Below are positions 38,082-59,925 of a DNA stretch of 64,000 bases, piece by piece. The position numbers were made by a program, and so were the translations under genes. The stretch is from Candidatus Poribacteria bacterium (lineage in GTDB: Bacteria > Poribacteria > WGA-4E > WGA-3G): contig JAGFCB010000020.1 of the NCBI GenBank assembly GCA_022394775.1, positions 984 to 64,983 of the forward strand. The letters are read 5' to 3'. The notes under the pieces were generated by a model that worked only from the letters and a program-made list of their open reading frames with translations, had not been told where the DNA came from and searched no databases. Numbering within the stretch: position 1 is the stretch's first letter; the number at the start of each line of letters is the position of its first letter.

Positions 38082-38085
38082 GAAC

Positions 38086-38162
38086 AGGACTTACGCAGTG
38101 TCCTTTGCTGGCGAGGTTTTAAGCCTCGCCAGCGGCGTGCATCAGCAAATTGCGTAAGTCCT
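38086..38162. repeat. REP/MITE-like nested palindrome, family B (full copy)
   Basis: The outer arms aggacttacgcag and tgcgtaagtcct flank the inner hairpin gctggcgaggtttt-aagcctcgccagc. It sits between hemE and the MBL-TPR gene. Confidence 0.75.
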
Positions 38163-38173
38163 AAGGAACATAG

Positions 38174-39631: not shown

Positions 39632-39643
39632 GAGGTATGTAAA

Positions 39644-40588
39644 ATGGGATACGATAGTGTTTTACTTGTTGCATTTGGCGGTCCTACACCCGGATGCTGT
39701 CAAAAATACGATAACGATATGTGTCCGGGGGAAGCTTACTGTTTTGTGGAAGGCATCGCTGGGGCAGCCGAATCCCAAGTGGAACGCGTAAAAGACATCT
39801 CCACACATTATATAAAATTAGGTGGATTTTCACCATTCAACGAATTGACTTTCAAGCAAGCCGAGGCTTTAGAGAGTGCTTTGCATGCGCGCGATTTACC
39901 GATTCCTGTTTATGCAGGGTTCCGGCATTGGACACCTTATTTAAAGGAAGTCATCGCCGAAATGGCACAAAAAGGACACCATAAAATACTCGGCATTATT
40001 ATGGCACCCCACCAATCCAAAATCAGTTGGGAATGGTATCAACAGGAAGTAAAAAAAGCAATTGACGCAGTTGATGGCGAGAAACCGACGATTGATTATC
40101 TCGATCCGTGGTACACACACAAAGGCTATGTCAATGCTATTGCTGAAATTATCAAAACTGCCTGCGGGGACAAATTAGAACGTGCCGAACTTGTTTTCAC
40201 AGCGCACGCAATTCCCGAAGCCGCGGCGAAGACTTCACCCTATACACAGCAATTCGGAAAAACTGCTGAAGCGGTTGCCCAAGAGATTGGAAAAACTCGG
40301 TTCAGCTTGGCATACCAAAGCGAAGTGGAAAGCAGCCCTATGCCGTGGACACAACCCGATATCAACGATTGGCTTAAAGCCGAAAAAGAAAAAGGAGTTG
40401 ATACTGTTGTCGCTTCACCGATAGGTTTCCTCTGTGATCACGTTGAAGTACTCTACGATCTTGACATAGAGGCAGCCGAGACGGCGGAAGCGTGCGGAAT
40501 TGATTTCATTCGAGCAGGAACTGTTGGCGCGCATCCCCTATTTATCAACATGTTAGCCGACTTTGTCTATGAAAAATCTGCGAAATAG
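39644..40588 (+). CDS. hemH: ferrochelatase (HemH/CpfC type) with a Cys-rich N-terminal insertion
   Basis: VLLVAFGGPT...HYIKLGGFSPFNELTFKQAEALESAL is collinear with B. subtilis-type ferrochelatase. The insertion is GCCQKYDNDMCPGEAYC. Confidence 0.85.
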   Translation: MGYDSVLLVAFGGPTPGCCQKYDNDMCPGEAYCFVEGIAGAAESQVERVKDISTHYIKLGGFSPFNELTFKQAEALESALHARDLPIPVYAGFRHWTPYLKEVIAEMAQKGHHKILGIIMAPHQSKISWEWYQQEVKKAIDAVDGEKPTIDYLDPWYTHKGYVNAIAEIIKTACGDKLERAELVFTAHAIPEAAAKTSPYTQQFGKTAEAVAQEIGKTRFSLAYQSEVESSPMPWTQPDINDWLKAEKEKGVDTVVASPIGFLCDHVEVLYDLDIEAAETAEACGIDFIRAGTVGAHPLFINMLADFVYEKSAK

Positions 40589-40685
40589 GTAGAGACGATC
40601 TCGTGATCTCAACCTTCGTACCCGTCCTCATGAAGGATACGGATCTAAAACCGTAAACGAAATTATCTAAGGATTGAGAATTCTC

Positions 40686-42104
40686 ATGCCGGAAAACTCT
40701 GGTAGTAAACGTGCTATTGTTATCGGAGGCGGCATCACCGGGTTAACCGCGTGCTATCGCTTACAACGTGAAGCGGCACAGCGCAATATCCAGCTTGATG
40801 TTACACTTCTCGAAGCGACTGGACGCGTGGGTGGGGTTATCCAGACCGAACACCGAGACGGATTCCTCGTTGAACACGGTCCCGATGCCTTTATCTCGAC
40901 AAAACCCGCTGCAAAAGCATTGTGCGAAGAACTCGGTATCGCAGATCAATTCGTAGGCACTAATCCAAAAGTCCGCCAGAGTTTCGTAACTCGAAAAGGA
41001 ACATTGCATCCTGTCCCTGAAGGCTTTTACATGATGGCGCCGGGATCCCTAAAGCCTTTTCTAAAAACACCTCTTTTCAGTTGGTACGGTAAACTGCGGA
41101 TGGCAATGGACCTCTTTATCCCGCGTCGGGAAAGAGACATTGATGAAGCCGTGGCACATTTCGTCAGGCGTCGCCTCGGCACCGAAGCCTTCACACGGAT
41201 TGCACAACCTATGATTGGAGGTATCTATACCTCCGATGCCGAAAATTTAAGCCTCAAGTCGACTTTTCCAAGATTCTTGGAAATGGAGAAAACACACGGA
41301 AGCATTATCAAAGCGCTCCGGGCACAGAAAAAACAGGCAGCTGCAACCAGCCAAGGCACCAGTGGTGCCCGTTATAGTCTCTTCCTGTCATTCAAGTCCG
41401 GTATGCAAACACTGGTTGACATGCTTGCTGAAACCGTGTCCAGCAGTATTAGATTAAATGCCCGTGTAGAACAAATTCAACAAAATACTGATGGCACCGG
41501 ATGGCAGGTGTCACTTGCTACTGGAGAGACTCTGAGTTCAGAACTCCTCTGTATAGCACTTCCAGCAATACAAACGGGCGCGCTCATCGAAAGTGTATCG
41601 AGTCCACTCGCTACGAAACTGAGTGCGATTCCGTACGCCTCTTCCGCAACCGTTAATTTGGCATTCCACCGTCCAGATATTACGCACCCGTTAGATGGTA
41701 TGGGATTTGTTGTCCCTGCTACAGAAAACTTATCCATAATCGGATGCTCATTCAGTAGCATCAAATTTGAGAACCGCGCACCAGAAGAACATATCCTGTT
41801 ACGCGCCTTTATCGGTGAACCGATTTCTAAACGTGCTGAATCTGACCTCATTCAGTTGTGTCAAACTGATTTAACACCGCTCCTGGGGATCAAGGGGGCT
41901 CCGCGGTTTGCCACTGTTAACAAGCACACGCAGGCGATGGCACAGTATCAAGTAGGACACCAAGAAGTCGTGAATGACATTGAACGGCTCACAAGCAAAT
42001 TGCAAGGACTCGCGCTTGCTGGAAACGGTTACCACGGAATAGGCATTCCTGATTGTATTCGGAGTGGCGAGACTGCAGCGATTTCACTCTTAGATGTGTT
42101 GTGA
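40686..42104 (+). CDS. hemY: protoporphyrinogen/coproporphyrinogen III oxidase, HemY (CgoX) type FAD enzyme
   Basis: KRAIVIGGGITGLTACYRL dinucleotide motif. About 470 aa. The ORF-track TTG start is at 40674. Confidence 0.85.
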   Translation: MPENSGSKRAIVIGGGITGLTACYRLQREAAQRNIQLDVTLLEATGRVGGVIQTEHRDGFLVEHGPDAFISTKPAAKALCEELGIADQFVGTNPKVRQSFVTRKGTLHPVPEGFYMMAPGSLKPFLKTPLFSWYGKLRMAMDLFIPRRERDIDEAVAHFVRRRLGTEAFTRIAQPMIGGIYTSDAENLSLKSTFPRFLEMEKTHGSIIKALRAQKKQAAATSQGTSGARYSLFLSFKSGMQTLVDMLAETVSSSIRLNARVEQIQQNTDGTGWQVSLATGETLSSELLCIALPAIQTGALIESVSSPLATKLSAIPYASSATVNLAFHRPDITHPLDGMGFVVPATENLSIIGCSFSSIKFENRAPEEHILLRAFIGEPISKRAESDLIQLCQTDLTPLLGIKGAPRFATVNKHTQAMAQYQVGHQEVVNDIERLTSKLQGLALAGNGYHGIGIPDCIRSGETAAISLLDVL

Positions 42105-42110
42105 GGTGCG

Positions 42111-43130
42111 ATGGACCTTAAGATAGTACACTGGAGCATAATCGGCGTGGGTTTGGGACTCGTAGGGTGCGTGTTGCTGATATTAGCTGCTAACCTTGCA
42201 CTTCAGGCAGCAGATGAGGTGTCTCGCGTGACAGAGATGTTCCAAGGGTTTCAGGATGGGAAGTGTAAAAGTTGCCACCCAGCGATCTGGAGGGAGTGGG
42301 CGGATTCGATGCACGCAAAAGCGTGGCTCGATGAAGTCTATCAGGCGGCTGCGAAGCAGATCACCGATAGAGAAACGAAGTGCGATCAGTGTCATGCTCC
42401 ACAACCAATTCTTATTACGGGCGTTGGGAACATGCCAAAGTTGAGAGACGAACAACGGGAAGCGGGTGTTTCGTGTCTCGTTTGTCACCTCGATGCACAC
42501 GGGGCGATGAACGGACCGGCAGCAAGTGCGGAAACCTATTTTCACGCCAACCTTACCAACCCTATTTATACCCAACCGACGACACTCTGTGGTACCTGCC
42601 ACGGTCAGCAAAGCGTTCCCGAACACGATCAAGTCTCCAGTTTTTTGAATAGCAAATTCGCTGACGGAGATACGAGTTGTGCGACGTGTCACATGCCGGT
42701 CGTAAAGCGGTTACAGAGCACCACCAGTCATGAAAGCATCAAAGGGCGGAAACATACGTGGCGTGGCAGCCGTAGTGTTGCGCAACTCAGGCGTGCCGCA
42801 ACCGTTCAGCTTGAATACACAGATGGAAAAGCGGTGGCGAAACTTCGCAGTAAGACAGGACACATCTTACCGGGAGGGACATTGCGTACCATTGTACTTG
42901 AGGTGACACTTCTCGCGTCGGATGGCACCGAACTTCAGAAACAGCAGATCTCAATCTCTGCGGAGAAGGAGAACCGCCTACTTCCAGACGAAAATAGGAC
43001 TTACACTTTTGATATTGTCTCTGCTACGACCGGCGACACAATTAAAGCACGTTTAATATATCAGTTGACACCGGATACTCCTGAACCGAAGCGAATATTG
43101 ATGGTAGAGAAAACGCATGTTGTCCGTTGA
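42111..43130 (+). CDS. membrane-anchored pentaheme c-type cytochrome
   Basis: N-terminal TM segment. Five CxxCH motifs: CKSCH, CDQCH, CLVCH, CGTCH, CATCH. The C-terminal ~140 aa is a non-heme domain. Confidence 0.85.
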   Translation: MDLKIVHWSIIGVGLGLVGCVLLILAANLALQAADEVSRVTEMFQGFQDGKCKSCHPAIWREWADSMHAKAWLDEVYQAAAKQITDRETKCDQCHAPQPILITGVGNMPKLRDEQREAGVSCLVCHLDAHGAMNGPAASAETYFHANLTNPIYTQPTTLCGTCHGQQSVPEHDQVSSFLNSKFADGDTSCATCHMPVVKRLQSTTSHESIKGRKHTWRGSRSVAQLRRAATVQLEYTDGKAVAKLRSKTGHILPGGTLRTIVLEVTLLASDGTELQKQQISISAEKENRLLPDENRTYTFDIVSATTGDTIKARLIYQLTPDTPEPKRILMVEKTHVVR

Positions 43131-43579: not shown

Positions 43580-44338
43580 CTATGCGTTCATGTTTGGTTG
43601 TGAATCGAGACCGAGCAAACGTTTTAGCGTCGGTGTTGCGCGCGAGATAACTTCGTCGGATACCAATCTGAGATGCGCCTGTTGCGGTTTCAAGATAGAA
43701 CGACAGAAGAAACCGAGTAACCCAACACGCGGTTCATTCGTTCTATTTTCTGATGAGCCATGCCATATTGCCCCGTTAACAATTAGAACGGAACCTCTCG
43801 GTCCACAGATCTGCAACTCGTCGGCATATTCGACACCCGATTCAGGTAACGCTTCGAGCCGTCCGTGGCTTCCGGGCACACAACTGGTTGCCCCATTTTC
43901 AAGCGTGAAGTCATCTAAAAACCAGACGCTGTTAGCGACGAGTGGAAAACTTGGGCGCGGTGTTGGCAAAGCAGATAACGGATAATCGATATGGAGACCG
44001 GCATCTGGTGCCCCGGGATAAAGCACATTCACTGTAAAGGAGCTCAATGTGCAATCGGGGCCGAGCAGATACTCCATCGCGGCGAGCATCTTCGGTTGTT
44101 GGATAGCTTCTTCAAAGATTTCGCCTTTGTCTACCAGATTCCAGACGCGTTGTGCGCTGTCGTTCGCGAGATATGTGTGACTTTTGCCGGTTTCTTGTTC
44201 TGCCGCAGCGAGTGCCAGCGAACGTTCCCGAAGCTGCAGCGTTGTATCTGAAGGTATAAGGCTTTCCAGCAGCAGGAAACCGCGTTGATCCAATTGTTCT
44301 TTTTCAGATTCATTTAATAACATAGGCTTTTTCCTCAA
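43580..44338 (-). CDS. phytanoyl-CoA dioxygenase (PhyH) family protein
   Basis: 252 aa. LDQRGFLLLESLIP, GLHIDYP, IWHGSSENRT. Confidence 0.85.
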   Translation of the reverse strand: MRKKPMLLNESEKEQLDQRGFLLLESLIPSDTTLQLRERSLALAAAEQETGKSHTYLANDSAQRVWNLVDKGEIFEEAIQQPKMLAAMEYLLGPDCTLSSFTVNVLYPGAPDAGLHIDYPLSALPTPRPSFPLVANSVWFLDDFTLENGATSCVPGSHGRLEALPESGVEYADELQICGPRGSVLIVNGAIWHGSSENRTNEPRVGLLGFFCRSILKPQQAHLRLVSDEVISRATPTLKRLLGLDSQPNMNA

Positions 44339-44466
44339 ATGCCATTACAGTCATTTGTAGATCTCTCGTAGGTACCTCTTGTGGATGCCACAAACTGTTT
44401 CTTGGTCATGATTTTCCAACCGAAAGGGTTAAAATCTGAAAATTAAATACCCTAAAATGTTTTTTG

Positions 44467-44495
44467 TTGACAGTTTAAGCGTTTTATAGTACTAT
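44467..44495 (+). promoter_or_regulatory. sigma70-like promoter P1 (TTGACA-17-TACTAT)
   Basis: TTGACA 44467-44472 and TACTAT 44490-44495, in the AT-rich region upstream of the giant gene. Confidence 0.5.
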
Positions 44496-44560
44496 GTCAA
44501 ACATATTGTCAATTTCTGCTAAAATAGTTGAAAACTGGCAACCGAAATTCAAATTTTGAT

Positions 44561-44589
44561 TTGACATATTTTTGAAATTGTGGTATTAT
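44561..44589 (+). promoter_or_regulatory. sigma70-like promoter P2 (TTGACA-17-TATTAT with TG extension)
   Basis: TTGACA 44561-44566 and tggTATTAT 44581-44589. This implies a leader of about 440 nt before the ATG at 45034. Confidence 0.5.
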
Positions 44590-45033
44590 TAATAGAAGTG
44601 AATTGCAATTTAATCGATGAGATACCGATGCGGCGGGAACACATTTTTACCGATTGCATAAAACATCACATATACTGTGCAGGGTGATTTTGCTTGCCGG
44701 TTTTCTGCCTGTAACACGAACATCTTTGCCACGTAGCGATTAAATGCTTGCTTAATTTGCCACTTTTTGTTAAAATAATAGAAAAATTCCCGCAAGGTCA
44801 AATATAAAAGTTGGGTGCCCGCTTTTTCACTAACTTTTGACTTGTGCCATAGGTTGTGCAAACCTTATCCTACGGCTATATCGGTATCGGGAAATTTTAA
44901 TGCTCGTTGGTAGGTTGTTAGTTGGATGGGCAAACATCTACCCCAGTCGTCTTTGTTGTATTCTCGCTTGCCCATCTAAGATACTCAGTACTTAGTCTCG
45001 CGAGCGCGCAGACTTGATGAGGAGGATGAGTTA

Positions 45034-48000
45034 ATGAAAAAACGAACACTCGTTTGTTTTTTGATTTTTACATTGTGTGTTTTTTACACCGCAATACCGA
45101 ACACAGTTTTCGGGCAAGAAGAGGGAGTTGCTCTCGCTAACCAAGTTTTTGACGAGTATAGCGAGACGCTTCAGCGTGACGACGTTAAATCATTGCTTCC
45201 AAAGATCTTAGACGGTCTTGCGGGGGCAGGTGATGATCAAGATATTCCAGCTCTCGTTGATACGGCTATCGCTTTGATTAACGCCGGTCAAGGGGCAGCC
45301 CTACAAGGACTCGCTGCTGGACAGGGTGTTACGCTAACAGATGACCATATAAAACTTCTTGCAGATCCGGAGGTCCAAACGTTACTTACGGCTGAAACCA
45401 CTAAGGAGCTGCTCGGGCTTAAGGGTGCGGAACTTCAGGCAGGACTCGCAGAGCTCTTGAGGTTAGCTAATGAACCGGTCGAAGAGGTAACACCGCCGCC
45501 AGAAGAGGAAGTGACACCGCCGCCAGAAGAGGTAATACCCCCGACAATTGCTCTCGCTAACCAAGTTTTTGACGAGCACAGCCAGACACTTCAGCGTGAC
45601 GACGTTAAATCACTGCTTCCACAGATCTTGGACGGTCTTCAGCAGGCAGGTGACGATGTCGATATCCCAGGTCTGATTGATACGGCTATCGCTTTGATTA
45701 ATGCCGGTCAAGGGGCAACCCTACAGGGACTCGCTGCTGGACAGGGTGTTCCGCTAACAGATGATCATATAACACTTCTTGCAGATCCGGATGTCCAAAT
45801 GTTACTTACGGCTGAAACCACTAAGGAACTGCTCGGGCTTAAGGGTGCGGAACTTCAGGTAGGACTCGCAGAGCTCTTGAGGTTAGCTAATGAACCGGTT
45901 GAAGAGGTAACACCTCCGCCAGAAGAGGAAGTAACACCTCCGCCAGAAGAGGAGGTAACACCTCCGCCAGAAGTGGTACCGCCTCCACCAGAGGATAAAG
46001 CACCTCCCTTTGAGCCTGCAACGCCTACAAGAGATTACCTGTTAGGTAAGTCTCGACTTGGTGGTTTGTCCCTAAACGGTGCTTCTGGCAGAAGGTTCGT
46101 TGAAGACTTTATTGCTGCACTGGCACCTGCTGGAATATCACTTGAAGCAGAGGTCGTAGTGGATGCTGTCCTTGATGCAGTGCCAACAGGGTTTTTGCCC
46201 AAAAAGCAGATTCGCAATCTTTTACTGTCAAAGCGTCTCAGTGTTTTCCCTCAGGAAGAGGATCAGTTAGATGCCGAGAACTTCGGAAATGCTATAATGC
46301 CGAATTTCACCGATTTTCTCTACTCAGATTTTGGCGACGCACCAAACCAAAAATACCTGACAAGCGATGGTCTGCACGTTTATACGCGTGTTCCAGCAAA
46401 GGTTGCGGGTGTCGAGTTTAGTCTCTCAGATGGTAGAACGATTCCCGGCACAGAGTTTAAAATGGCTGAACTCGGAGCCGATACCATCGATTATACCTTC
46501 CGCTTAGAGGAAACGCTTGCTGCCACTAACTTACCCGCATGGCCAGACTTAGATGCTCAGTTGTTCTCCGGTGTTACGCTCCGATATTCAAATACCGGTT
46601 CTATGAATGATGACTATATTGGCGTTACTATGCAACCGGTACCTGGAGAAAATGGAGTCGTCTGGGAAGCAAAATTGGGTATACCTGCTGGTCGTAGCAC
46701 GTATTACTATTTTGAAGTAATGCTTGCTGAACCGTTGACGTTCACCGCACTGGACCGGGACGCTATTGCCGCCCTCGATCCGACCACCGCTACGTTAGCA
46801 GATGTCCTCAATCCGGCGAATCTACATCAAATTACGATTGAAGGTTGGGCAATGCCTGATCCGCGTAACCTCCAATTAGCGGACCGCGGTATTGTTGAGG
46901 CGTTATTCACACCTAACTTGGTAGATGCGTTTAGGGAAATATTGGATTCGCCGCAAACCCTTCAGTTCATCGCGGGTCAGGCTGATTTAAATAACATTGC
47001 TACACCAAAGCAGTTGCGTAGAATCCAGACCATATTGCTCCGTAATACGAACGCGCTGACAACTCAATTTGAGGAAGCGTTTGATCCGATGTTGGCTTCT
47101 GTTTTCACCGTGCCACGTGTTGATCTGGAAACCCAATCACTCTGGACTGCCCACATTGATAATATTGCTGATGGCAACTATCAGTTGAAAGCGGATGTTC
47201 TTGCTGATGACGGAACCGTTCTTGATCGGATGCAAGAGAATATCACTGTTGACACGAGCGCACCGGAAGCAAATATCGGCATTAGTCCAGGTGAGGACGC
47301 AAATGCTACTGGCTATATGAACGATGATGGAATTTATGTTGCTACTGCACCTACTGTTGGCACCGCCGCAACGCTCAAGATTATGGGTATGCCGACGGTT
47401 CCTGGTGAGATCGCTCCAGGTAGAGGTTATCTTCTCTATCAATTGATCGCACTGAACGAAGATGGGACACCTTACCTCGGAGACCCATCGATTCAAAAAC
47501 CCAACACTTGGATGCCGTTGACTGTTGACTCCACTATGTTGGTATCCAATATTTGGGACGCAGTTCGAGGGGCGATTGCAGAGGGACGATTGAACGCACC
47601 AACTGATCCAACCCTTCAGACAGTCTTGGCATTGCCGTTAGATGGAATATTGGGTATTCTGAATGCCGGTTTAATACAGCAATTCGCAGATCCGGTCCTA
47701 AAAGATTTGGAACCTTTTATAGGGTTTAGCAGTTTAAATGATAGCCAGGCGCAATTGATAGTTGAAGCACTCGGTGCTACAATAGACATCATTGACCATC
47801 TTGTACCTGTAACCTTTGATCCATCTGGGCACGTAGTGATGCCTATCCAGGGTGCGCAAATGCCGCTTATAACTGGTGATTACGGCATCCGCGCAATGGG
47901 ACTGGATAGTCTCTTCAATGTTGGTGCTTACGCCGCACCTACCCATCTCAGGATCGTTGAGCCAAGTGCCAATACTGATCGCGCAAGCATTGTGAATGCT

Positions 48001-51000
48001 AATATCGGCGACTTCAACAATGATGGTATGGTTGATCCTGAATACGAAACCGGAATTATCTACGCAAATACCAAAAATGTCATGATAACCGGGACTGTAA
48101 CCCAAAAACACCCGATCCAATCTGTTGTGATCCAATACAAGGACGCAAGTGACAATTGGGTAAACATCGACGAAGCTGCTGTCATGGGTGCAGACTTTGA
48201 ATACACTTGGAACGTTGATAATTTTGACGCATTAATCAGTGCAGGCGACACTGTCATGGTGCGCGCCAAGGCAACCAATGCGCTTCAACTTCCAGACCTT
48301 GAACCCATGCCGTTCTCAATCAAGTTGGATCCTGGTATCTATCCGCCTAAAGTGTTGGATATTGTAGCTGATGAGGGCGAGAGTCAAAACGCAGATAGTG
48401 GTGCCCCACAAGGCATGGTCACTATTACCGCATCTACGGAACCACTGACCGGTCCAAAGACTGTTGCGGTTCGGTTTGAAGCCAAACGCCCAACCGATGA
48501 AACGTGGATCCCACTCGGCACAGATAACGCTGTTGCGAGTGCTGTTGGCGCAGCTGTTGATGCTGCTCTTGAAGGTGCTACCGCTGCTCCGATCAGTGTG
48601 GATGGTAAGCAAACATGGTCAATAGAAGTAAATACAGCAGAGGACTTGGAAGACACTATCACGAAGGACAGCCCCGGTGCACGGGACAAATCCAAGGATG
48701 ATAACCAGTATACAATTCGTGCCTTTGCTGTTGACGCAAGCGGAAAAGAGTGGCCCTCTGATAAGACTACGATGCTCTCGGTTGACAACGTTGACGATGT
48801 CGCACCCCTTGCACCTACAAGTATTAGTGTGACGGATGTTGATGGCGTTGATGTCGTCTTTGAAGATGAAGATGGTAATTACACTGTTGGTGGACTCGTC
48901 GATAAATATGACGATGATGTCCCATCGCCAGAGGCTACATTTACGATTAAACCCGAAGCAGAGCGGAAGACTTACACATCGGTCAAATTTACAATGACGG
49001 ATGCTGCAGGTACTGATAGTGAATTAAAAGTAGCCGAAACCGCTGAAGGCGGCGTTTTCACCGTAAAAGTTGATGTCGGCACACTTGCTGATGGTACTTA
49101 TACGTTCCAAGCACTCGCCTATGATGAGGTTCCCAACGTGGAAGCCGATACGGACGACTCCAAAGTCTTAGTGACGGTTAAAAACACTTTCCGACCGGAA
49201 CCGAAAGTTTTGGCTCTCGCTGTGGACCCCGAAAGCATCACACAAACAAACCCGGATAGTGGTGCACCGCAGGGGACCATCACACTCCACGCCTATTCGC
49301 ACGAGATCAGTTCTCCGGCGACGAAGGGTGTCCGTCTTGTAGTCAAACGTCCTGGTGATGAAGAGTGGATAGATGCTGGCGAGGCTACTGAAAGTACGCC
49401 GACTACCGAAATTTCGGACACAACCCTTACAGATTTTGTTGGGGACTTAGCCAATGCTGCAACGGATACAGCAGTTGTACCGATCAATCGAACCTATCAA
49501 ATGTGGGCGATTGAAGTAGATACAACCCAGCTTGAAGATACCATTACCGCTGAGAACCCTGCAGCAGCACGCGACGCGTCTAAAGACAAAAACCAATATA
49601 CGGTTCGTGCAATCCCAATTGAAGAAGCAGAGGATTTTGACGATCCAGAGGCATCTCCAAATGCTACGGCCATGTTCTCAGTTGACAATGATGACGATGT
49701 CGAGCCATTAGGTCCGACGAACATTGTCGCTGTTGCGGACGTTGCTGGTCCGATTGAAGCAAACGAAGATAATATTTACACTGTCGGTGGGATTGTTGAT
49801 GATACAGTTCCTTCACCGATAGCAACATTTACAATTGAGCCGACTGCTGATCCTGCTACCTACGCATCCGTCAACTTGGTGCAAACCGCAGGGGAGGTTT
49901 CCGAAACTGTTGCCGAAGGCGAAGCCGGTGTGCTTGACATTACAATTGATGTTGGCGCGCTTGAAAATGGAACTTATATGTTCCACGCTTTAGCCGTTGA
50001 TAAGTCCGGTAACGTGCAAACCGATGAGTCTCCGATGATAACGGTGCATGTCCTGAACTTCCGAGTCTCTGATGTTGCTGACTTAGCGGTCAGCGCTGTT
50101 GATGGTACGGACGTTGCGGAATCACCCGCAGAACCGATTCCACTTCGCAATTCAGTCACGGTGAGTTTTACGGTTGCAAACGGTTCATTAGCAGCTGAAG
50201 AACTTAGCGGCACAGTAAACGGAGATGGTGTACCGAGCGAAAGTGCTGAAGATCCGGAAAATACCTTCTCACTGATGGTAGAGGTCGGAGCACTTGCAGA
50301 CGGAGTCTATACACCCGACGCTTTGGTCACAAAACGGAACGGTTCGGTCGCTTTCCCAATAACAACAGTTAATGTGGATAACACCGGTCCAATGGTTACT
50401 ATCGAATCTCCTACGGATGGTGAAGCGGTAGATAGCCTGCCGACTGTACACGCAAGTTATCACGATGGTGCGGGTGCGGGTGTTGATGGTACCACTGGAA
50501 GCCTTGATTTGGCACGTCTCCAGCCACCTGACGCTGTTGAAGTGGTTGTTGACCAAGCGGAACTTGAAAAAGATGCTGAAGCCTTGGTCTATACCCGTAG
50601 TGAGCAACTTGCCGGTGGCGCGTATCGTGTAACTGTTGAAGTTGCTGATATCCTCGGTAACGTCGGTACGAGTATGCGGGAATTCACTGTCAATGGGACG
50701 CTCCCAACTGTTGCGATTCATTCGCCGGTTTCAGGGCAAACCTTTGAGCACGGCAAACCGCCGATCAGTGGTGAATTTTCGGGTGCTGGCACTATTGAAA
50801 TTACTACGTTTACTATCAACGATGTTGATGCAACACCAGAGGTAGACGGGAACCAATTTTCCTATACACCTGGGGAAGCATTGAGCGATGGTGATTACAA
50901 GGTCGTTGTCGCAGTCACTGACGGTGATGGTAATGTCGCACAGGCATCCAGTATCTTCACGGTAGATATGCCGAGAGACACAACACCACCAGTGATCTCC

Positions 51001-52323
51001 GCAGCTGCACCTAATGGAGTCATTAGGGATGCAGACCACGCTAAAGTCGGGTCGGCAAAGATCTCAGCGGTCGTGACTGACGAGCAATCGTCCATTTTAT
51101 CTGTGAAATACAGCATAAATGGTGGTCAACTCCGTTCCATATCCAACTTGAATGTTGCTGGTGGGAAGATCGAAGCACCGATAGACTTTGAAGCACACGG
51201 AGCAGGTCTGTACAACGTACGACTCGTTGCAACCAGCCAAGGTGGTACCACGGAATACACGTGGAGTTTCACACTCATTGTTGATAATATCGCACCTACG
51301 ATCACCTCGATTAGCCCGTCTGGAACGATCCGTGGCGGACTCCCGGTTATCTCCGCGAGTGCCAACGACGATTCAGGCGTTTCTAAAATAACAATCACTG
51401 TTATGGATAGTACGGGTAAAGAGGTGAAGGGTAAGACCCAAGATGATGGTGAAAGCGATGTTGAAGGTATCACCCGTTTGGATTTCAATCCTGAAGCACC
51501 GCTTGATGAAGGTGTTTACACGATTGAGGTTCGCGCAACGGATCCATACGAGAACTCCGCTTCAGCTAAAGGGACTTTCACTATTGACTTTGATACCGCT
51601 GCACCGGTCATCACAATGGCATCGCCACAACAGGATGCACGCATTGTGCTGAAAGCAGGGGATAAGGCGCCGACAGTTTCGATTGCCTATGCCGATGCTG
51701 AATCCGGTGTAAACGTTGAGTCTATTGTCTTGACACTGGAAGGCCCTGTATTCAAGTCTACCCCGAGTGGTGATAAACCTAACCTCAAGCCTGAGCAGAA
51801 GACGGCAAGCCAGGTTATGTATACACTGCCTTTCAATACAGTAGTAGATAAACCTGAAAGATGGGTCGGAGAATATGTGGTTAGACTTGAGGTGGCTGAC
51901 AACGCGCACTTAGAGGGCAATGTCTCTGAAAAGAGTAAAGGTGCCCGTAAGGCGAATGCGACAGTCCATCAGTTTAGCTTTACTATTGAAAGTGCCGAAG
52001 GTCCAATACTGGCAGCACGTCCGATTAACTACCCCAACCCGTTCAAGGATAACACGCGGATCTCCTTTACATTGGCTCGAGAATCTACGGTCAGTATTGT
52101 CATCTATGACAGCACGCTCCGTCCGGTTCGAGTGCTGATGGATAATGCGGTATTGCCAGCAGGCAATTATACCCGTAAGGAGGTTGGTTCGGATGCCTTC
52201 GGTTGGGATGGGAAATCGAGCAGTGGTGAAGATATGGCACGAGGTATCTACTTCTGCGAGATCATCGTAGCAGATGGTTTAGAACCCGAATATGCCATTC
52301 TCAAACTCGCACTGACGCGCTAA
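45034..52323 (+). CDS. giant secreted repeat protein: signal peptide, duplicated helical N-domains with PPPEEEVT linkers, many Ig-like domains, FlgD-Ig/T9SS-type C-terminal domain
   Basis: 2429 aa. GAGGAGG SD. Signal peptide MKKRTLVCFLIFTLCVFYTAIPNTVFGQ. Repeated domain boundaries VDNTGPMVTIESP, DTTPPVISAAAP, VDNIAPTITSISP, DTAAPVITMASP. C-terminus NYPNPFKDNTRISFTL...VSIVIYD...FGWDGKSSSGEDMARGIYFCEI. Confidence 0.9.
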   Translation: MKKRTLVCFLIFTLCVFYTAIPNTVFGQEEGVALANQVFDEYSETLQRDDVKSLLPKILDGLAGAGDDQDIPALVDTAIALINAGQGAALQGLAAGQGVTLTDDHIKLLADPEVQTLLTAETTKELLGLKGAELQAGLAELLRLANEPVEEVTPPPEEEVTPPPEEVIPPTIALANQVFDEHSQTLQRDDVKSLLPQILDGLQQAGDDVDIPGLIDTAIALINAGQGATLQGLAAGQGVPLTDDHITLLADPDVQMLLTAETTKELLGLKGAELQVGLAELLRLANEPVEEVTPPPEEEVTPPPEEEVTPPPEVVPPPPEDKAPPFEPATPTRDYLLGKSRLGGLSLNGASGRRFVEDFIAALAPAGISLEAEVVVDAVLDAVPTGFLPKKQIRNLLLSKRLSVFPQEEDQLDAENFGNAIMPNFTDFLYSDFGDAPNQKYLTSDGLHVYTRVPAKVAGVEFSLSDGRTIPGTEFKMAELGADTIDYTFRLEETLAATNLPAWPDLDAQLFSGVTLRYSNTGSMNDDYIGVTMQPVPGENGVVWEAKLGIPAGRSTYYYFEVMLAEPLTFTALDRDAIAALDPTTATLADVLNPANLHQITIEGWAMPDPRNLQLADRGIVEALFTPNLVDAFREILDSPQTLQFIAGQADLNNIATPKQLRRIQTILLRNTNALTTQFEEAFDPMLASVFTVPRVDLETQSLWTAHIDNIADGNYQLKADVLADDGTVLDRMQENITVDTSAPEANIGISPGEDANATGYMNDDGIYVATAPTVGTAATLKIMGMPTVPGEIAPGRGYLLYQLIALNEDGTPYLGDPSIQKPNTWMPLTVDSTMLVSNIWDAVRGAIAEGRLNAPTDPTLQTVLALPLDGILGILNAGLIQQFADPVLKDLEPFIGFSSLNDSQAQLIVEALGATIDIIDHLVPVTFDPSGHVVMPIQGAQMPLITGDYGIRAMGLDSLFNVGAYAAPTHLRIVEPSANTDRASIVNANIGDFNNDGMVDPEYETGIIYANTKNVMITGTVTQKHPIQSVVIQYKDASDNWVNIDEAAVMGADFEYTWNVDNFDALISAGDTVMVRAKATNALQLPDLEPMPFSIKLDPGIYPPKVLDIVADEGESQNADSGAPQGMVTITASTEPLTGPKTVAVRFEAKRPTDETWIPLGTDNAVASAVGAAVDAALEGATAAPISVDGKQTWSIEVNTAEDLEDTITKDSPGARDKSKDDNQYTIRAFAVDASGKEWPSDKTTMLSVDNVDDVAPLAPTSISVTDVDGVDVVFEDEDGNYTVGGLVDKYDDDVPSPEATFTIKPEAERKTYTSVKFTMTDAAGTDSELKVAETAEGGVFTVKVDVGTLADGTYTFQALAYDEVPNVEADTDDSKVLVTVKNTFRPEPKVLALAVDPESITQTNPDSGAPQGTITLHAYSHEISSPATKGVRLVVKRPGDEEWIDAGEATESTPTTEISDTTLTDFVGDLANAATDTAVVPINRTYQMWAIEVDTTQLEDTITAENPAAARDASKDKNQYTVRAIPIEEAEDFDDPEASPNATAMFSVDNDDDVEPLGPTNIVAVADVAGPIEANEDNIYTVGGIVDDTVPSPIATFTIEPTADPATYASVNLVQTAGEVSETVAEGEAGVLDITIDVGALENGTYMFHALAVDKSGNVQTDESPMITVHVLNFRVSDVADLAVSAVDGTDVAESPAEPIPLRNSVTVSFTVANGSLAAEELSGTVNGDGVPSESAEDPENTFSLMVEVGALADGVYTPDALVTKRNGSVAFPITTVNVDNTGPMVTIESPTDGEAVDSLPTVHASYHDGAGAGVDGTTGSLDLARLQPPDAVEVVVDQAELEKDAEALVYTRSEQLAGGAYRVTVEVADILGNVGTSMREFTVNGTLPTVAIHSPVSGQTFEHGKPPISGEFSGAGTIEITTFTINDVDATPEVDGNQFSYTPGEALSDGDYKVVVAVTDGDGNVAQASSIFTVDMPRDTTPPVISAAAPNGVIRDADHAKVGSAKISAVVTDEQSSILSVKYSINGGQLRSISNLNVAGGKIEAPIDFEAHGAGLYNVRLVATSQGGTTEYTWSFTLIVDNIAPTITSISPSGTIRGGLPVISASANDDSGVSKITITVMDSTGKEVKGKTQDDGESDVEGITRLDFNPEAPLDEGVYTIEVRATDPYENSASAKGTFTIDFDTAAPVITMASPQQDARIVLKAGDKAPTVSIAYADAESGVNVESIVLTLEGPVFKSTPSGDKPNLKPEQKTASQVMYTLPFNTVVDKPERWVGEYVVRLEVADNAHLEGNVSEKSKGARKANATVHQFSFTIESAEGPILAARPINYPNPFKDNTRISFTLARESTVSIVIYDSTLRPVRVLMDNAVLPAGNYTRKEVGSDAFGWDGKSSSGEDMARGIYFCEIIVADGLEPEYAILKLALTR
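45128..45967 (+). repeat. tandem duplication, 2 x 420 bp, roughly 90 percent identical by eye (coding)
   Basis: Unit 1 starts ttgctctcgctaaccaagtttttgacgag at 45128. The same string recurs at 45548. Each unit ends in 24-nt PPPEEEVT microrepeats. Confidence 0.9.
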
Positions 52324-52395
52324 GTAAATGGCGGTCCGCATATCGGGAATTGGACATGCGTCCAGTTCCCGATGTGGACACTGAAGGAGGATATA

Positions 52396-53394
52396 ATGTT
52401 AATGACAAAGCAAATTGCTAAATGGGCTTCAAAAGGATGCCCAAAATTGCTATGTGGTTTAATGCCACTTTTCTTTCTTATCCTAGCGGTGTCGCCGGTC
52501 AGTTTTGCCGGAGTGGATGCCATGCCACATCTAAGGCTTGGTGCCGGTGCACGCTCGATTGGTTTAGGCGGTGCTTTCACAGCTATCGCCGATGATGCCA
52601 CCGCAACAGTTTGGAATCCAGCAGGACTCGGATCTGCAGCGGATTTAAGTCTCAATCTTTCAACCCAACAACTCGACCTTGATAGAAGCCACAACTTTAT
52701 CGCGTTGACAAAAGCACTCGGTTCAGCCGGTTCTATCGGGCTTGCAGTCGTAAACGCTGGTGTCAGCGGTATCCCGCAGTACGATAACCAAGCAAATCAC
52801 CAAGGTGAGTTTGACTATAGCGCAAACGCTTATTCCCTCTCTTATGGCGTTGGTCTCGGGAATTTCAATATCGGTTTAACAGGTCGCATGCTGATGGATA
52901 ACTTCGGTTTAGACAGTGTTGAAAACCAGAGTGGGTTTGGTGGTGTAGATGTCGGTTTGATGGGACATGCGCTGCACATAGATGTTGGTGAAGAAAAAGT
53001 TCCAACCTTCCATTATGGCGTTGTTGCTAAATACCTCGGCGCATCCCTTGGTGATGACACCGTTCCGATGGTAGTCAATCTCGGTTTGGCTTACAATCTC
53101 TATATGGGCAATGTCGTTACATTCGCAGCAGATGTCGAGCATGAGCTCGTCAATCTTGATGAGAGTGCAACGAGCCTACGGCTTGGAACTGAGTACACGA
53201 TCGTCACTTACAAATCTACTGCTTTGTCCATCCGTGGTGGCGTCAAAGCTTCACGCGATGTACAGAACCTCTTTGGTGGGTTTGGTGTGAACATAAGTGG
53301 GCTGCAGATTGACTATGCTATCCAAGATGGCATGGCAAGTGAAATCAATGGCGTCGGCTCAACTCACTTTGCTTCCCTCTCTTATAGATTTTAA
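52396..53394 (+). CDS. PorV/PorQ-family-like outer-membrane beta-barrel protein
   Basis: The ATG at 52396 follows AAGGAGG. Signal peptide, then LRLGAGARSIGLGGAFTAIADDATATVWNPAGLG (family hallmark). C-terminal ...SLSYRF has the terminal Phe typical of OMPs. Confidence 0.7.
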   Translation: MLMTKQIAKWASKGCPKLLCGLMPLFFLILAVSPVSFAGVDAMPHLRLGAGARSIGLGGAFTAIADDATATVWNPAGLGSAADLSLNLSTQQLDLDRSHNFIALTKALGSAGSIGLAVVNAGVSGIPQYDNQANHQGEFDYSANAYSLSYGVGLGNFNIGLTGRMLMDNFGLDSVENQSGFGGVDVGLMGHALHIDVGEEKVPTFHYGVVAKYLGASLGDDTVPMVVNLGLAYNLYMGNVVTFAADVEHELVNLDESATSLRLGTEYTIVTYKSTALSIRGGVKASRDVQNLFGGFGVNISGLQIDYAIQDGMASEINGVGSTHFASLSYRF

Positions 53395-53406
53395 AGGAGA
53401 AAACGT

Positions 53407-54270
53407 ATGAAAATGATAAGAGGCACTCTGAAGTTGGCACTGATTCTGTATATCTGCGCAGCACTCAGTGGCGTTTATATCCTGTCTGCCTCGGCGCGAA
53501 TTACACCGCACGATGGCGATGATGACACGATGCTCATTACTATTGAAAAAGGGGATACCCTCTGGGACCTCTGCCAAGAGCACCTCAAAGACCCGCTCCA
53601 GTGGCGTGAATTGAGCAAGTATAACGACTTCACCAATCCGCACCTTATTTTCCCTGGTGAAAAATTGCGTATTCCGCTTGCTATGGCAAAAGATGTTGTT
53701 GAAATTGCTGAAGAAGACTTGCTGAAACAGCAGGAAGAACTTGAAAAGCTGAGGATGGAATTATCCGAATCTGAAGCAACGCGGGATAAACTTGAGGCGG
53801 ACATTAAAGCACTCAATGCGAGTACAAGCAAACTCAAGGCACAACTCGAAGAACTTGAAAGCAGCCTGAAATCACAAAAAGAATTGATGATGGCTGTTAC
53901 TAAGTCTGGAAACGAAATTGCCTCTGCTGTCAAAGAATCTCTTGAAGCCAGCAAAGCGGCTATCCTTAGCGATATTGCTCACCTTGATGAGCATCTCGCA
54001 GAGGCAGCTACCAGGCTTAAAGATCATCAGATGAAAGCAGACGCTACAAATGCACTCGTTGAATCTATCCAAGCGGACGCGAAGACACTTTTGACACAGG
54101 TTGAGACCAACCAAAAGGCGATCAAAGAAGTCAAGATGATCCTTAAGGATGCCAAGGGTGTACACGAGGAAGTTTCCTCGTCTAAACGTGCTTTGGTGTT
54201 CCTGACAACAGTCGCAGCAGGTATCGGGTGGTTCGCTATAAGTGCCATCGGTGGACGCAGCGGCGAATAA
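53407..54270 (+). CDS. LysM domain plus long coiled-coil protein with N- and C-terminal hydrophobic anchors
   Basis: LysM: ITIEKGDTLWDLCQEHLKDPLQWRELSKYNDFTNPHLIFPGEKLRIP. About 170 aa of heptad-rich sequence. C-terminal ALVFLTTVAAGIGWFAISAIGG. Confidence 0.8.
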   Translation: MKMIRGTLKLALILYICAALSGVYILSASARITPHDGDDDTMLITIEKGDTLWDLCQEHLKDPLQWRELSKYNDFTNPHLIFPGEKLRIPLAMAKDVVEIAEEDLLKQQEELEKLRMELSESEATRDKLEADIKALNASTSKLKAQLEELESSLKSQKELMMAVTKSGNEIASAVKESLEASKAAILSDIAHLDEHLAEAATRLKDHQMKADATNALVESIQADAKTLLTQVETNQKAIKEVKMILKDAKGVHEEVSSSKRALVFLTTVAAGIGWFAISAIGGRSGE

Positions 54271-54290
54271 TCAGGACGCATTACATTTTA

Positions 54291-54327
54291 GGCAGGGAAG
54301 GTGTTTCAACCACCTCCCTGCTTTTTT
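54291..54327 (+). terminator. rho-independent terminator closing the giant-protein operon
   Basis: gcagggaaggtg-tttcaac-cacctccctgc followed by ttttttt. Confidence 0.8.
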
Positions 54328-54405: not shown

Positions 54406-55035
54406 ATGCTATCAGATACTACCGAATACCCTCAACCTCCCTTCACTCAAGCGATTCAGCTGTATGGTGATAGATCAGGCAGTAAAGGGACTTTTAAGTT
54501 CGCTGGCTTCGCATGGATACAAAACACGAAAGTCATACTCGTACACGGAGACGATCAAAGTCTAAACACTGCTTCTGACTGGCGATGTTTACTACGCCTG
54601 ATCGCACTCGCACATCGTCTCAAAAAACCTATTGTTTTATGGAATCTGCCCCTTGCGTATATTGCCAATATACAGCGTAAAACGACTTTAGATTGTGCGC
54701 ATGCAATTCAGAAAACCGAGTTGGAACTGCTAAGGCTATCCTGTCCGATCATTGCCGTTTTTGATGGTGCTAATAATATGGATCACGCTGCTCAAGAGTT
54801 GATATGGAATGACGGGATGGTCCTTGTGGCATCGTCGGACGCACAACTTTCTGAACAGGAGAGGGTCAAAATAGCAGCGCATTCAACAGACATCTCGCCC
54901 GCAATCTTAGAACTCCTAAGTCAAACAGAGGCAATTCCGGCTACAGAATTGGTCAAGAACCGGCGAGCATCGCTACACTTCCTCGTGGAATCAAATCCGT
55001 TATACAATGCGGAGGCATCACAATGTTTGAAGTGA
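54406..55035 (+). CDS. hypothetical protein (weak carboxyltransferase/crotonase-fold-like pattern)
   Basis: 209 aa. The segment RLIALAHRLKKPIVLWNLPLAY...LSCPIIAVFDG resembles ACCase carboxyltransferase subunits only loosely. Overlaps the next gene by 13 nt. Confidence 0.5.
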   Translation: MLSDTTEYPQPPFTQAIQLYGDRSGSKGTFKFAGFAWIQNTKVILVHGDDQSLNTASDWRCLLRLIALAHRLKKPIVLWNLPLAYIANIQRKTTLDCAHAIQKTELELLRLSCPIIAVFDGANNMDHAAQELIWNDGMVLVASSDAQLSEQERVKIAAHSTDISPAILELLSQTEAIPATELVKNRRASLHFLVESNPLYNAEASQCLK

Positions 55036-55646
55036 AATTAAAGCCCTGTCTTGAGACGATCCTGTCTACGATTGCCAACAAAATGGTCGCAATCGGTATT
55101 ACAGCGAACATGGTGACGATCTTTGGGTTCCTTGTCAACCTTATCGCAACCTTTTATTTCGCAACAGGCCACCTTATTACGGGTGGTATTCTTATTTTAT
55201 TTGGCGGGAGTTTTGATATGATAGATGGAGCCGTAGCACGTGCGCAAAGAAACTTACGCGCCTCTGGGGCACTTTTGGATTCTGTGATTGATCGCTACTC
55301 CGAAGGCTTTCTCTTCCTCGGTGCACTCATCTATTTTTACGGTTTAGAAAGTTTATTGGGGATCATTTTAGCGTTTGGCGCATGGTTTGGTTCGATACTC
55401 GTCAGCTATGTGAGAGCAAGAGCGGAGGGACTCCAAATTACTTGTAAGGTTGGACTCATGCAGCGACCCGAACGCATCATCTTACTGGGTACCGGTACAC
55501 TGCTCCAAGGCATATTCTGGTACAAATTTCCGATTGTCCAGAGCACCGGAATAATTCTGCTCTGCACGCTTGGTATCCTTACACTCACCTCACACATTAC
55601 TGCTGTCCACCGCCTAATTTTTTCTTATCACGAGCTGGAGCGCTAA
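55023..55646 (+). CDS. CDP-alcohol phosphatidyltransferase family protein
   Basis: Signature DMIDGAVARAQRNLRASGALLDSVIDRYSE (DGx2ARx8Gx3Dx3D). Multi-TM. Confidence 0.85.
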   Translation: MFEVKLKPCLETILSTIANKMVAIGITANMVTIFGFLVNLIATFYFATGHLITGGILILFGGSFDMIDGAVARAQRNLRASGALLDSVIDRYSEGFLFLGALIYFYGLESLLGIILAFGAWFGSILVSYVRARAEGLQITCKVGLMQRPERIILLGTGTLLQGIFWYKFPIVQSTGIILLCTLGILTLTSHITAVHRLIFSYHELER

Positions 55647-58886: not shown

Positions 58887-59627
58887 CTATGCATCAAGAG
58901 GTTTCCCGCGTAAGACTTCACGAGACTGGGTTTCGCCGTTTCCCGTTACATTGTAAGCGAAGGTGTTCATCAACCGGTCGTTTGATGAATTATTCGGTGC
59001 GGAGCCGTGAATAATCAGAGCGTTAAAAAAGACTCCATCTCCAGGTTCCATTTCAAGAGCGACTGCATCTTCCCGTTCTTGATAGTGTCCAGGTAGAAAA
59101 ACGCCAAACGTCTGATGCTTGCGTTCGTGTTCCTGCAAGCCCCAATTATGGCTTCCCGGGACAAACTGAATGCACCCGTTCTCAAGGTTCGCTTCGCTGA
59201 TCGCTAACTGGCAGTTAATCATGACAGGTTTGTTATTATCATTTTTCCAGTAAGCATAATCTTGGTGCCACGGGATAGCCGTTCCATCACCGCCTGCTTT
59301 CGGAAGCAATTTGCTGTGATAGAGCGAGATGTTTTCACCCATTAACCTTTCTAATATATCCAACATATCATCACAACGGAGCAGGTGATTGAGCGTTGGA
59401 CTCACCAACTCGCTGTGCATTAACTGCTTGATACGCGGCGGATGATCGTCCGAATCATAGACTTCCCACGAAATTCCGATACCATCAGTGGGTTGTTCTG
59501 CCATACGGTTGTGTATATCTTCGATTTCCTCCTGAATTCGCGCGATGTCTTCAGCTGAGACAAGTCTTTTTTTCAAGAGGTAACCGTTTTTTTCATAAAA
59601 CTTTTGTTCTTCGTTCGTAAGTCCCAT
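58887..59627 (-). CDS. phytanoyl-CoA dioxygenase (PhyH) family protein
   Basis: The ATG at 59627 follows AAGGAGAG. EEQKFYEKNGYLLKK, PWHQDYAYW, IIHGSAPN. Confidence 0.85.
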   Translation of the reverse strand: MGLTNEEQKFYEKNGYLLKKRLVSAEDIARIQEEIEDIHNRMAEQPTDGIGISWEVYDSDDHPPRIKQLMHSELVSPTLNHLLRCDDMLDILERLMGENISLYHSKLLPKAGGDGTAIPWHQDYAYWKNDNNKPVMINCQLAISEANLENGCIQFVPGSHNWGLQEHERKHQTFGVFLPGHYQEREDAVALEMEPGDGVFFNALIIHGSAPNNSSNDRLMNTFAYNVTGNGETQSREVLRGKPLDA

Positions 59628-59925
59628 ATGATCTCTCCTTAACCCATCCAGCGCAATCGCTAAATGGTGTGGCTCTTTCCTCCTAAACGAAATTGCATTT
59701 AAAAGTATATACCACGTTTCGAGAAAAATCAAGGGATTTCCGTTTTAATTGCCTATTTGAACGGGCATTGAGAGAAAAAAGTTTACTTTCATTGCAGGTG
59801 CTGCTACAATATGCATCGCTTAGGATTCATGCAATTGCGTACCACAGGTGCTGTCGCCCCTAAATGCTTAAATAGTCGCGTACAACTTGTGCACATGCCA
59901 CTAAAATGGAGATGGACTGATAGAT

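Follow-up and report, generated by a model that had tools for sequence, protein, structure and literature searches.

A three-gene operon conserved across Candidatus Poribacteria encodes a giant secreted protein, a PorV-like barrel and a LysM coiled-coil protein

How might a bacterium without a reported type IX secretion system (T9SS) core hold T9SS-tagged proteins at its envelope? We addressed this question with a three-gene operon found in a 64,000-nt stretch of DNA from Candidatus Poribacteria (assembly GCA_022394775.1, contig JAGFCB010000020.1, positions 984 to 64,983), which we call the window. The operon encodes a giant secreted protein that ends in a sorting-type C-terminal domain (CTD), an outer-membrane barrel of the PorV/PorQ kind, and a small protein that joins a LysM domain to a long coiled coil. 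A first-pass annotation, made from the sequence letters, had taken these genes for a self-contained module that exports and anchors an adhesin. We suggest, at a probability of about 55%, that this is a phylum-wide operon of Poribacteria that displays a giant, fast-diversifying, adhesin-like protein at the cell envelope.

Among the uncultured symbionts of sponges, Poribacteria are dominant, and since 2014 their CTD-tagged "eukaryote-like" surface proteins have stood without a known sorting pathway. Kamke et al. (2014) reported that many of these proteins carry TIGR04183. The structural Por genes were not found in their poribacterial single-cell genomes, which were incomplete, and the secretion pathway "remains to be revealed" (PMC3909097). 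In the literature on the T9SS in Poribacteria, this is the only relevant statement that we found. NCBI places the phylum outside the established superphyla, and in the work of Kamke et al. it falls outside the PVC (Planctomycetes-Verrucomicrobia-Chlamydiae) group.

Results

The gene triad is kept throughout the phylum

The open reading frame (ORF) table and the translations place three genes on the same strand between two promoter-like sites and a terminator (Table 1). The ORFs are as the first-pass annotation had described them, and they are indeed tightly spaced, with 72 nt between the giant and barrel genes and 12 nt between the barrel and LysM genes. We scanned one genome per GTDB species with a four-sequence query alignment and obtained 80 loci. 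All of them were from Poribacteria, with barrels 64 to 98% identical. The close homologues all belonged to Candidatus Poribacteria and came mostly from sponge metagenomes. Wherever the flank was present, gene order and strand were kept (80 of 80 species loci): a gene ending in a CTD lay upstream of the barrel gene, and the LysM coiled-coil gene lay directly 3' of it, all on one strand. The gaps were 72 to 79 nt and 12 to 25 nt in the great majority of loci. Lack of conserved linkage had been named beforehand as a possible refutation of the module, and the linkage found in these loci and in the deeper lineages described below does not refute it.

Median identity to the window across the 80 species loci was 86% for the barrel, 74% for the CTD (78 loci), and 71% for the LysM protein. 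For three body segments of the giant it was 49 to 50%, and the giant orthologues range from 1877 to 3245 aa. Such a gradient, with a conserved foot under a variable passenger, would be expected if an adhesin were exposed on a fixed anchor. Three assemblies have the giant gene split over several ORFs (L001 1153-9926; L017; L048), and this could reflect long-read frameshift errors or true pseudogenization.

Deeper relatives, with barrels 37 to 50% identical to that of the window, also keep the triad. They comprise two freshwater JGI contigs and one 5.2-Mb genome. In the freshwater relatives, a 129-aa gene of the 23S_rRNA_IVP family lies between the giant and barrel genes (L084 9505-9894; L085 3847-4236), and the triad is flanked by extra genes for giant Ig-repeat proteins (Big_1, Invasin_D3).

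Our view outside Poribacteria comes from look-ups of individual distant barrel matches. In Gemmatimonadota and Latescibacteria, PorV-family barrels adjoin FlgD_ig/Por_Secre_tail proteins, and the LysM coiled-coil gene is missing. Barrel-CTD adjacency is widespread, and the LysM coiled-coil partner appears to be specific to Poribacteria. Another layout was seen around distant PorV-family barrels in one Gemmatimonadota genome and two marine metagenome contigs (L087 2157-9026; L090 4566-10981; L091 2768-9231), where the barrel is preceded by an unannotated protein of about 800 aa, and this in turn by a TonB-dependent-receptor-like protein with CarboxypepD_reg and Plug.

The giant protein ends in a T9SS-type CTD

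The giant begins with a Sec-type signal peptide (aa 1 to 27). It is followed by two 140-aa repeats (aa 32 to 310; mutual identity 84 to 92%), each ending in a PPPEEEVT linker and visible at the DNA level as a 420-nt tandem repeat. The next stretch of about 770 residues (aa 330 to 1100) matched no family. Two further repeats of about 285 aa each occupy aa 1105 to 1677. The Ig-like domains (Big_13, Big_3_3, and Big_7) are confined to about aa 1680 to 2320, and the CTD covers aa 2325 to 2429. In Pfam and PDB sequence searches, the N-terminal 1100 aa matched nothing known, and the whole giant had no relatives among PDB sequences. The earlier label of an Ig-repeat protein thus fits only the region at about aa 1680 to 2320, where the recognizable Ig-like domains lie.

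The CTD scored 38.5 bits with Por_Secre_tail (PF18962) and 35.1 bits with FlgD_ig (PF13860), above the Pfam gathering score of 27 for both. Against TIGR04183 in NCBIfam it scored 20.9 bits, just below the cutoff of 23. The same stretch also aligns with the CTD portion of the PorU model, and weak matches to FlgD were its only matches among PDB sequences. These profile matches bear out the FlgD-Ig/type-A CTD that had been read from the letters, and they assign the CTD to the predicted T9SS type-A/FlgD-Ig kind.

The barrel resembles PorV

The barrel ORF was called mechanically as 52372-53394. An ATG at 52396 has a GGAGG 6 nt upstream. This is almost certainly the true start, because of that GGAGG and because the resulting 332 aa match the length of the homologues. 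The protein consists of a signal peptide (aa 1 to 38), a plug motif (aa 44 to 80), and 14 strands (aa 84 to 331) that end in a terminal Phe. It aligns with profile positions 3 to 326 of the 326 in the NCBIfam PorV/PorQ model NF033709, at 87.5 bits against a curated cutoff of 90 (E = 1.2e-24). It lies below the equivalog cutoffs for both PorV (24.9 versus 250 bits) and PorQ (42 versus 220 bits). NCBI names some of its orthologues PorV/PorQ family and others UPF0164. The only match among PDB sequences was Flavobacterium johnsoniae PorV, through the N-terminal motif. The wider family is large: 7431 clusters at 50% identity have an E value of ≤0.001, and about ten clusters lie within E ≤ 1e-30.

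We built an AlphaFold2 model of the barrel from 87 diverse homologues, distant ones included. The model is confident (pLDDT 83, pTM 0.80) and has 14 strands and a short helical N-terminal plug segment. Its top Foldseek matches were the PorV chains 8gl6_F and 6h3i_F, at a template modeling (TM) score of 0.74. FadL, TodX, and TbuX formed a second tier at 0.52 to 0.59. In Pfam, the window barrel had no match to PF03349 (FadL/TodX), and no PorP/SprF or type-B CTD family was among the Pfam and NCBIfam matches of the operon proteins. The barrel is therefore predicted to be a 14-strand FadL-fold protein with an N-terminal plug, and the structures nearest to the model are those of PorV. The PorV/PorQ likeness noticed at first pass, from the N-terminal motif and the terminal Phe, agrees with the full-length profile alignment and with the ranking by fold.

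The third protein has the pattern of a spacer

The LysM protein starts with a hydrophobic segment that is either a signal peptide or a transmembrane helix (aa 1 to 30) and carries a signal-peptidase-type site, ASA|R. A LysM domain follows at aa 44 to 90 (PF01476; 31.8 bits against a gathering score of 20.9, over the full 43-position profile), and this match is retained in deep relatives. The coiled coil spans about aa 95 to 255, and these roughly 160 residues match coiled-coil families only. The C terminus consists of a hydrophobic helix, ALVFLTTVAAGIGWFAISAIGG, predicted as transmembrane (aa 262 to 283), and a short polar tail. LysM domain, coiled coil, and hydrophobic ends are all as first annotated. 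Weak NCBIfam matches to EnvC, ActS, and YneA were also found.

The total length of the protein is 285 to 290 aa in 84 of the 87 loci. Column identity is 0.83 to 0.89 at the ends and 0.60 in the coiled-coil middle. A coiled coil of fixed length and free sequence is the pattern expected for a spacer.

CTD proteins also occur without a neighboring barrel

A CTD hidden Markov model (HMM) revealed additional CTD proteins in six loci (L051, L066, L068, L069, L073, and L076). They are encoded a few kilobases away from the triad, and none has a neighboring barrel gene. One of them is a 959-aa cohesin/VWA/hemicentin-like protein (L066 17029-19908, minus strand). A second, divergent PorV/FadL-like barrel is present in one species, 8 kb downstream of the triad (L027 19405-20502; 145 bits on the barrel HMM). 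It adjoins PhyH and FGE-sulfatase genes, not a CTD protein. A more distant PorV/PorQ-family paralogue is annotated in Poribacteria as well (P0481). Taken with the report of Kamke et al., the CTD proteins without a barrel and the paralogues indicate that the CTD is a general tag in the phylum and that the giant may not be the only partner of the barrel.

We found no SprA/Sov, PorK/L/M/N (GldK/L/M/N), or PorU in the 64-kb window or in the flanks of up to 21 kb that the analysis covered. Nothing in the operon could plausibly carry the 2429-aa giant (about 250 kDa) through the outer membrane. The proposal of self-contained export is thus not sustained, and the CTD proteins without a barrel and the second PorV/FadL-like barrel speak against it too.

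A long conserved leader precedes the operon

The non-coding stretch at 44461-45033 (about 570 nt) has 80 to 97% nucleotide identity in about 50 Poribacteria species. Blocks of conservation extend to the most distant species, and the stretch is better conserved than most of the coding sequence of the giant. The two promoter-like sites within it, P1 and P2, are the two top-scoring sigma-70-like sites of the region. Upstream conservation begins at P1, where the block TTGACAGTTTAA is near-invariant across at least 20 species. At P2, TTTGACAT...TGTGGTAT(C/T)AT is invariant or nearly so in 25 of 25 aligned species, the most distant included. The terminator has its stem and T7 tract, so both ends of the operon are framed as the first-pass annotation had proposed.

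Shine-Dalgarno (SD) sequence GAGGAGG is at 45019-45025, with a hairpin just upstream of it. The last 150 nt of the leader can form a long-range helix, GGATGGGC/GCCCATCT, together with this hairpin, and further pairs touch the SD sequence. Of the cells in the consensus fold, 98% are paired. Double changes occur at five pairs, but they stem from few lineages, so that covariation support is modest. The leader had no Rfam match at gathering or relaxed thresholds.

We rejected a small-protein ORF in the leader because of frequent 1- to 2-nt indels and the lack of a conserved ORF. In one relative, an insertion of about 430 to 480 nt separates the first and second conserved blocks (L064, about 745-1222), and it may be a small mobile element. 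The indels and this insertion of about 430 nt argue for a non-coding leader. It is likely a cis-regulatory RNA or a dense operator region, and it probably controls expression of the operon.

Table 1. Coordinates of operon features in the window
Feature	Position	Strand	Basis
Promoter-like site P1 (TTGACA, 17 nt, TACTAT)	44467..44495	+	sigma-70-like, 10 of 12 positions
Promoter-like site P2 (TTGACA, 17 nt, TATTAT, extended -10 TG)	44561..44589	+	11 of 12 positions
Conserved non-coding 5' leader, about 440 nt	44596..45033	+	nucleotide conservation in relatives
Giant secreted protein, 2429 aa	45034..52323	+	ORF, profile matches, repeats
CTD, predicted T9SS type-A/FlgD-Ig-like beta-sandwich	52006..52320	+	Pfam matches
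PorV/PorQ-family outer-membrane barrel, 332 aa	52396..53394	+	profile, AlphaFold2 model, Foldseek
LysM/coiled-coil/transmembrane protein, 287 aa	53407..54270	+	profile matches
Intrinsic terminator, GC-rich stem of about 11 bp then T7	54291..54327	+	sequence; inner stem detected by signal scan

Discussion

A possible arrangement of the three proteins

We suggest that the barrel may serve as the cognate receptor and anchor for the CTD of the giant, in the way that PorQ holds PorZ, that PorV holds PorU and cargo, or that SprF/PorP-like barrels act with their type-B partners. In this scenario, the CTD-barrel pair would form the invariant foot, with the variable passenger turned toward the sponge host. 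As for the LysM protein, its C-terminal helix would anchor it in the inner membrane as a strut, with the coiled coil spanning the periplasm. About 160 residues at 0.15 nm each give the strut a length of about 24 nm. At its tip, the LysM domain may bind peptidoglycan under the barrel and thereby fix, space, or brace the complex, a role functionally analogous to that of the peptidoglycan-binding PorE in the PorE-PorP-PG1035 complex. Translocation of the giant across the outer membrane would be supplied from outside the operon, by a divergent SprA-like translocon or by another route.

Several points weigh against this arrangement. The surface exposure of the giant and the binding of its CTD to the barrel are both inferred, the latter from the invariant adjacency of the two genes. 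The barrel marginally misses the curated NF033709 cutoff and falls short of Pfam PorV. The topology given above for the LysM protein is a prediction. Its N-terminal hydrophobic segment shows unusual conservation and may stay uncleaved as an anchor. Finally, the high conservation of the barrel and the many other CTD proteins fit a general shuttle equally well. The barrel would then be the housekeeping PorV of a complete, divergent T9SS that serves all CTD proteins. The LysM protein would be an accessory of that system, and the giant simply the cargo that is most abundant or co-regulated. We regard this as a possible but not the favored explanation. A single PorV serves all type-A CTDs in Bacteroidota (PMC12618676), many poribacterial proteins carry the CTD (PMC3909097), the hemicentin-like protein and those in five other loci have no adjacent barrel, and few proteins of the locus are as conserved as the barrel. 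However, Kamke et al. found no structural Por genes, though in incomplete single-cell genomes. The barrel paralogues leave room for specialization, and a shuttle for all cargo needs no phylum-wide, invariant adjacency to one of them.

It is doubtful that the CTD proteins of Poribacteria are sorted by a minimal, unrecognized, T9SS-independent apparatus with the barrel and an inner-membrane-anchored LysM strut at its heart. Such a display pathway, if real, might be ancestral to the Bacteroidota attachment machinery or a reduced form of it. We consider it rather improbable that the triad is itself a minimal system, in which barrel and strut mediate export or CTD insertion and display without either a SprA translocon or a PorKLMN motor. 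In its favor are the lateral openings of FadL-fold barrels, the retention of the triad over the whole phylum, and the reported absence of T9SS structural genes where CTD proteins are abundant. That absence rests on incomplete genomes from 2014, however, the operon encodes no energy source, and plugged 14-strand barrels are not known to be able to pass folded, multidomain proteins of about 250 kDa. Very unlikely, in our judgment, is linkage without common function, with a FadL-like channel for hydrophobic uptake beside a wall remodeling or division factor of the EnvC/ActS/YneA type. The second-tier structures, faint Toluene_X matches in relatives, and the weak EnvC, ActS, and YneA matches would agree with it. 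Yet PorV is clearly the best match by structure and sequence, the barrel has the PorV/PorQ N-terminal motif, and the LysM protein has no peptidase or activator domain past the coiled coil. Moreover, the invariant order, gaps of 12 to 79 nt, and single terminator recur in at least 80 species. Display of the giant on a barrel and strut remains the reading that we prefer.

Relation to known barrel-CTD systems

The first-pass annotation had stated that no such dedicated module has been characterized. This was too strong: SprF-SprB, pairs of PorP-like barrels with type-B proteins, PorQ-PorZ, and PorP-PG1035-PorE have all been published. Type-B CTD adhesins such as SprB bind neighboring PorP/SprF-like barrels, which are required for secretion and surface anchorage (PMC9143113, PMC12618676). 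In Porphyromonas gingivalis, PorV tethers PorU and PorQ tethers PorZ to the cell surface through the retained CTD (PMC5562754). The same species has a complex made up of PorP, PG1035 as the CTD protein, and PorE, which binds peptidoglycan (PMC9143113). PorE, a lipoprotein of the outer membrane, contains TPR, beta-propeller, CRD, and OmpA_C domains (PMC5053529). Because of these barrel-CTD pairs and the PorE complex, the principle of the module is already characterized.

The window operon resembles each of these systems in part. With PorV (F. johnsoniae PDB 6H3I/8GL6; P. gingivalis PG0027), the barrel shares the predicted 14-strand FadL fold, the plug motif GxGARxxGxGGAxxAxxDDxxxxxWNPAG, and a gene beside one for a protein with a type-A-like CTD. 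However, it is only 16 to 17% identical to PorV and has 332 aa, compared with 345 to 402 residues in the PorV chains. It is also genetically fixed to one giant cargo and a LysM protein, in a phylum that lies outside the Fibrobacteres-Chlorobi-Bacteroidetes (FCB) group and has no known SprA partner. The likeness to PorQ-PorZ and PorV-PorU would be in mechanism, with a barrel that holds a CTD protein, but PorZ and PorU are machinery and not giant adhesins, and no PorU-like sortase was identified here. In F. johnsoniae, a giant adhesin gene (SprB and other type-B proteins) adjoins the gene for a dedicated barrel (SprF or PorP/SprF-like), and in the window the giant and barrel genes are likewise neighbors. 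This likeness is one of gene arrangement and presumed mechanism only, for the window has a PorV/PorQ-family barrel, a type-A/FlgD-Ig-like CTD, and a third LysM gene that is always present. The PorE-PorP-PG1035 complex offers the same trio of CTD protein, outer-membrane barrel, and peptidoglycan binder. Its genes do not form one operon in P. gingivalis, and its peptidoglycan binder differs from the window protein, in which LysM is joined to a long coiled coil and, at the C terminus, to a membrane helix. Like the predicted strut, Lpp and TolA domain II are long alpha-helical spacers that link membrane and wall layers and conserve length rather than sequence. They have no sequence relationship to the LysM protein. 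We know of no prior description of a LysM domain, coiled coil, and C-terminal transmembrane helix coupled to a PorV-like barrel.

What is new, therefore, is the combination of a PorV/PorQ-type barrel with a type-A/FlgD-Ig CTD, and of both with a LysM/coiled-coil/transmembrane partner in place of an OmpA_C lipoprotein. Also new is that this combination is fixed as a single operon throughout a phylum that lies outside the FCB group and for which no T9SS core has been reported. The parts are individually familiar, and some are automatically annotated as "PorV/PorQ family"; neither the triad with its phylum-wide conservation, nor the LysM strut, nor the conserved leader has been described.

For the question of CTD sorting in sponge symbionts, the operon provides a concrete candidate receptor and anchor and, unexpectedly, a partner linked to peptidoglycan. 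Every species sampled has the operon, and its conserved foot and hypervariable giant passenger make the giant a likely host-facing molecule. The principle of a cognate barrel for a CTD cargo would extend from the PorP/SprF barrels and type-B CTDs of Bacteroidota to a PorV/PorQ-type barrel and a type-A-like CTD outside the FCB group, which bears on the evolution of T9SS parts. The leader, at 440 to 570 nt, could be an undescribed cis-regulatory RNA.

Neighboring genes and other observations in the window

Haem biosynthesis genes (URO-D, ferrochelatase, and an amine-oxidase-type HemY-like gene) and then a multihaem cytochrome c gene (42111-43130) lie upstream of the operon, at 37002-43130. Genes for PhyH-family dioxygenases are found on both sides of the locus (43580-44338 and 58887-59732). 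Past the terminator, at 54406-55646, are a gene for a 209-aa protein with a weak carboxyltransferase-like match (54406-55035) and a CDP-alcohol phosphatidyltransferase gene. Both genes keep their position in most relatives, and the first also occurs in the deep lineage L086. Therefore, synteny runs beyond the operon. We rejected the two genes as module members, because the terminator separates them from the operon, their products look cytoplasmic or related to lipids, and in L084 another giant gene takes their place.

Elsewhere in the window, a single ORF of 1433 codons (7073-11374, plus strand) joins an ECF (extracytoplasmic function) sigma factor (aa 41 to 191), an FtsZ/tubulin GTPase (aa 219 to 523), and a DnaE-type PHP/Pol III alpha part (aa 557 to 1431). 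It could be a real fusion, the result of lost stop codons, or an assembly artifact. The ORF is in one frame with no stop, its junctions are read through, and the Pol III part ends at the HHH motif.

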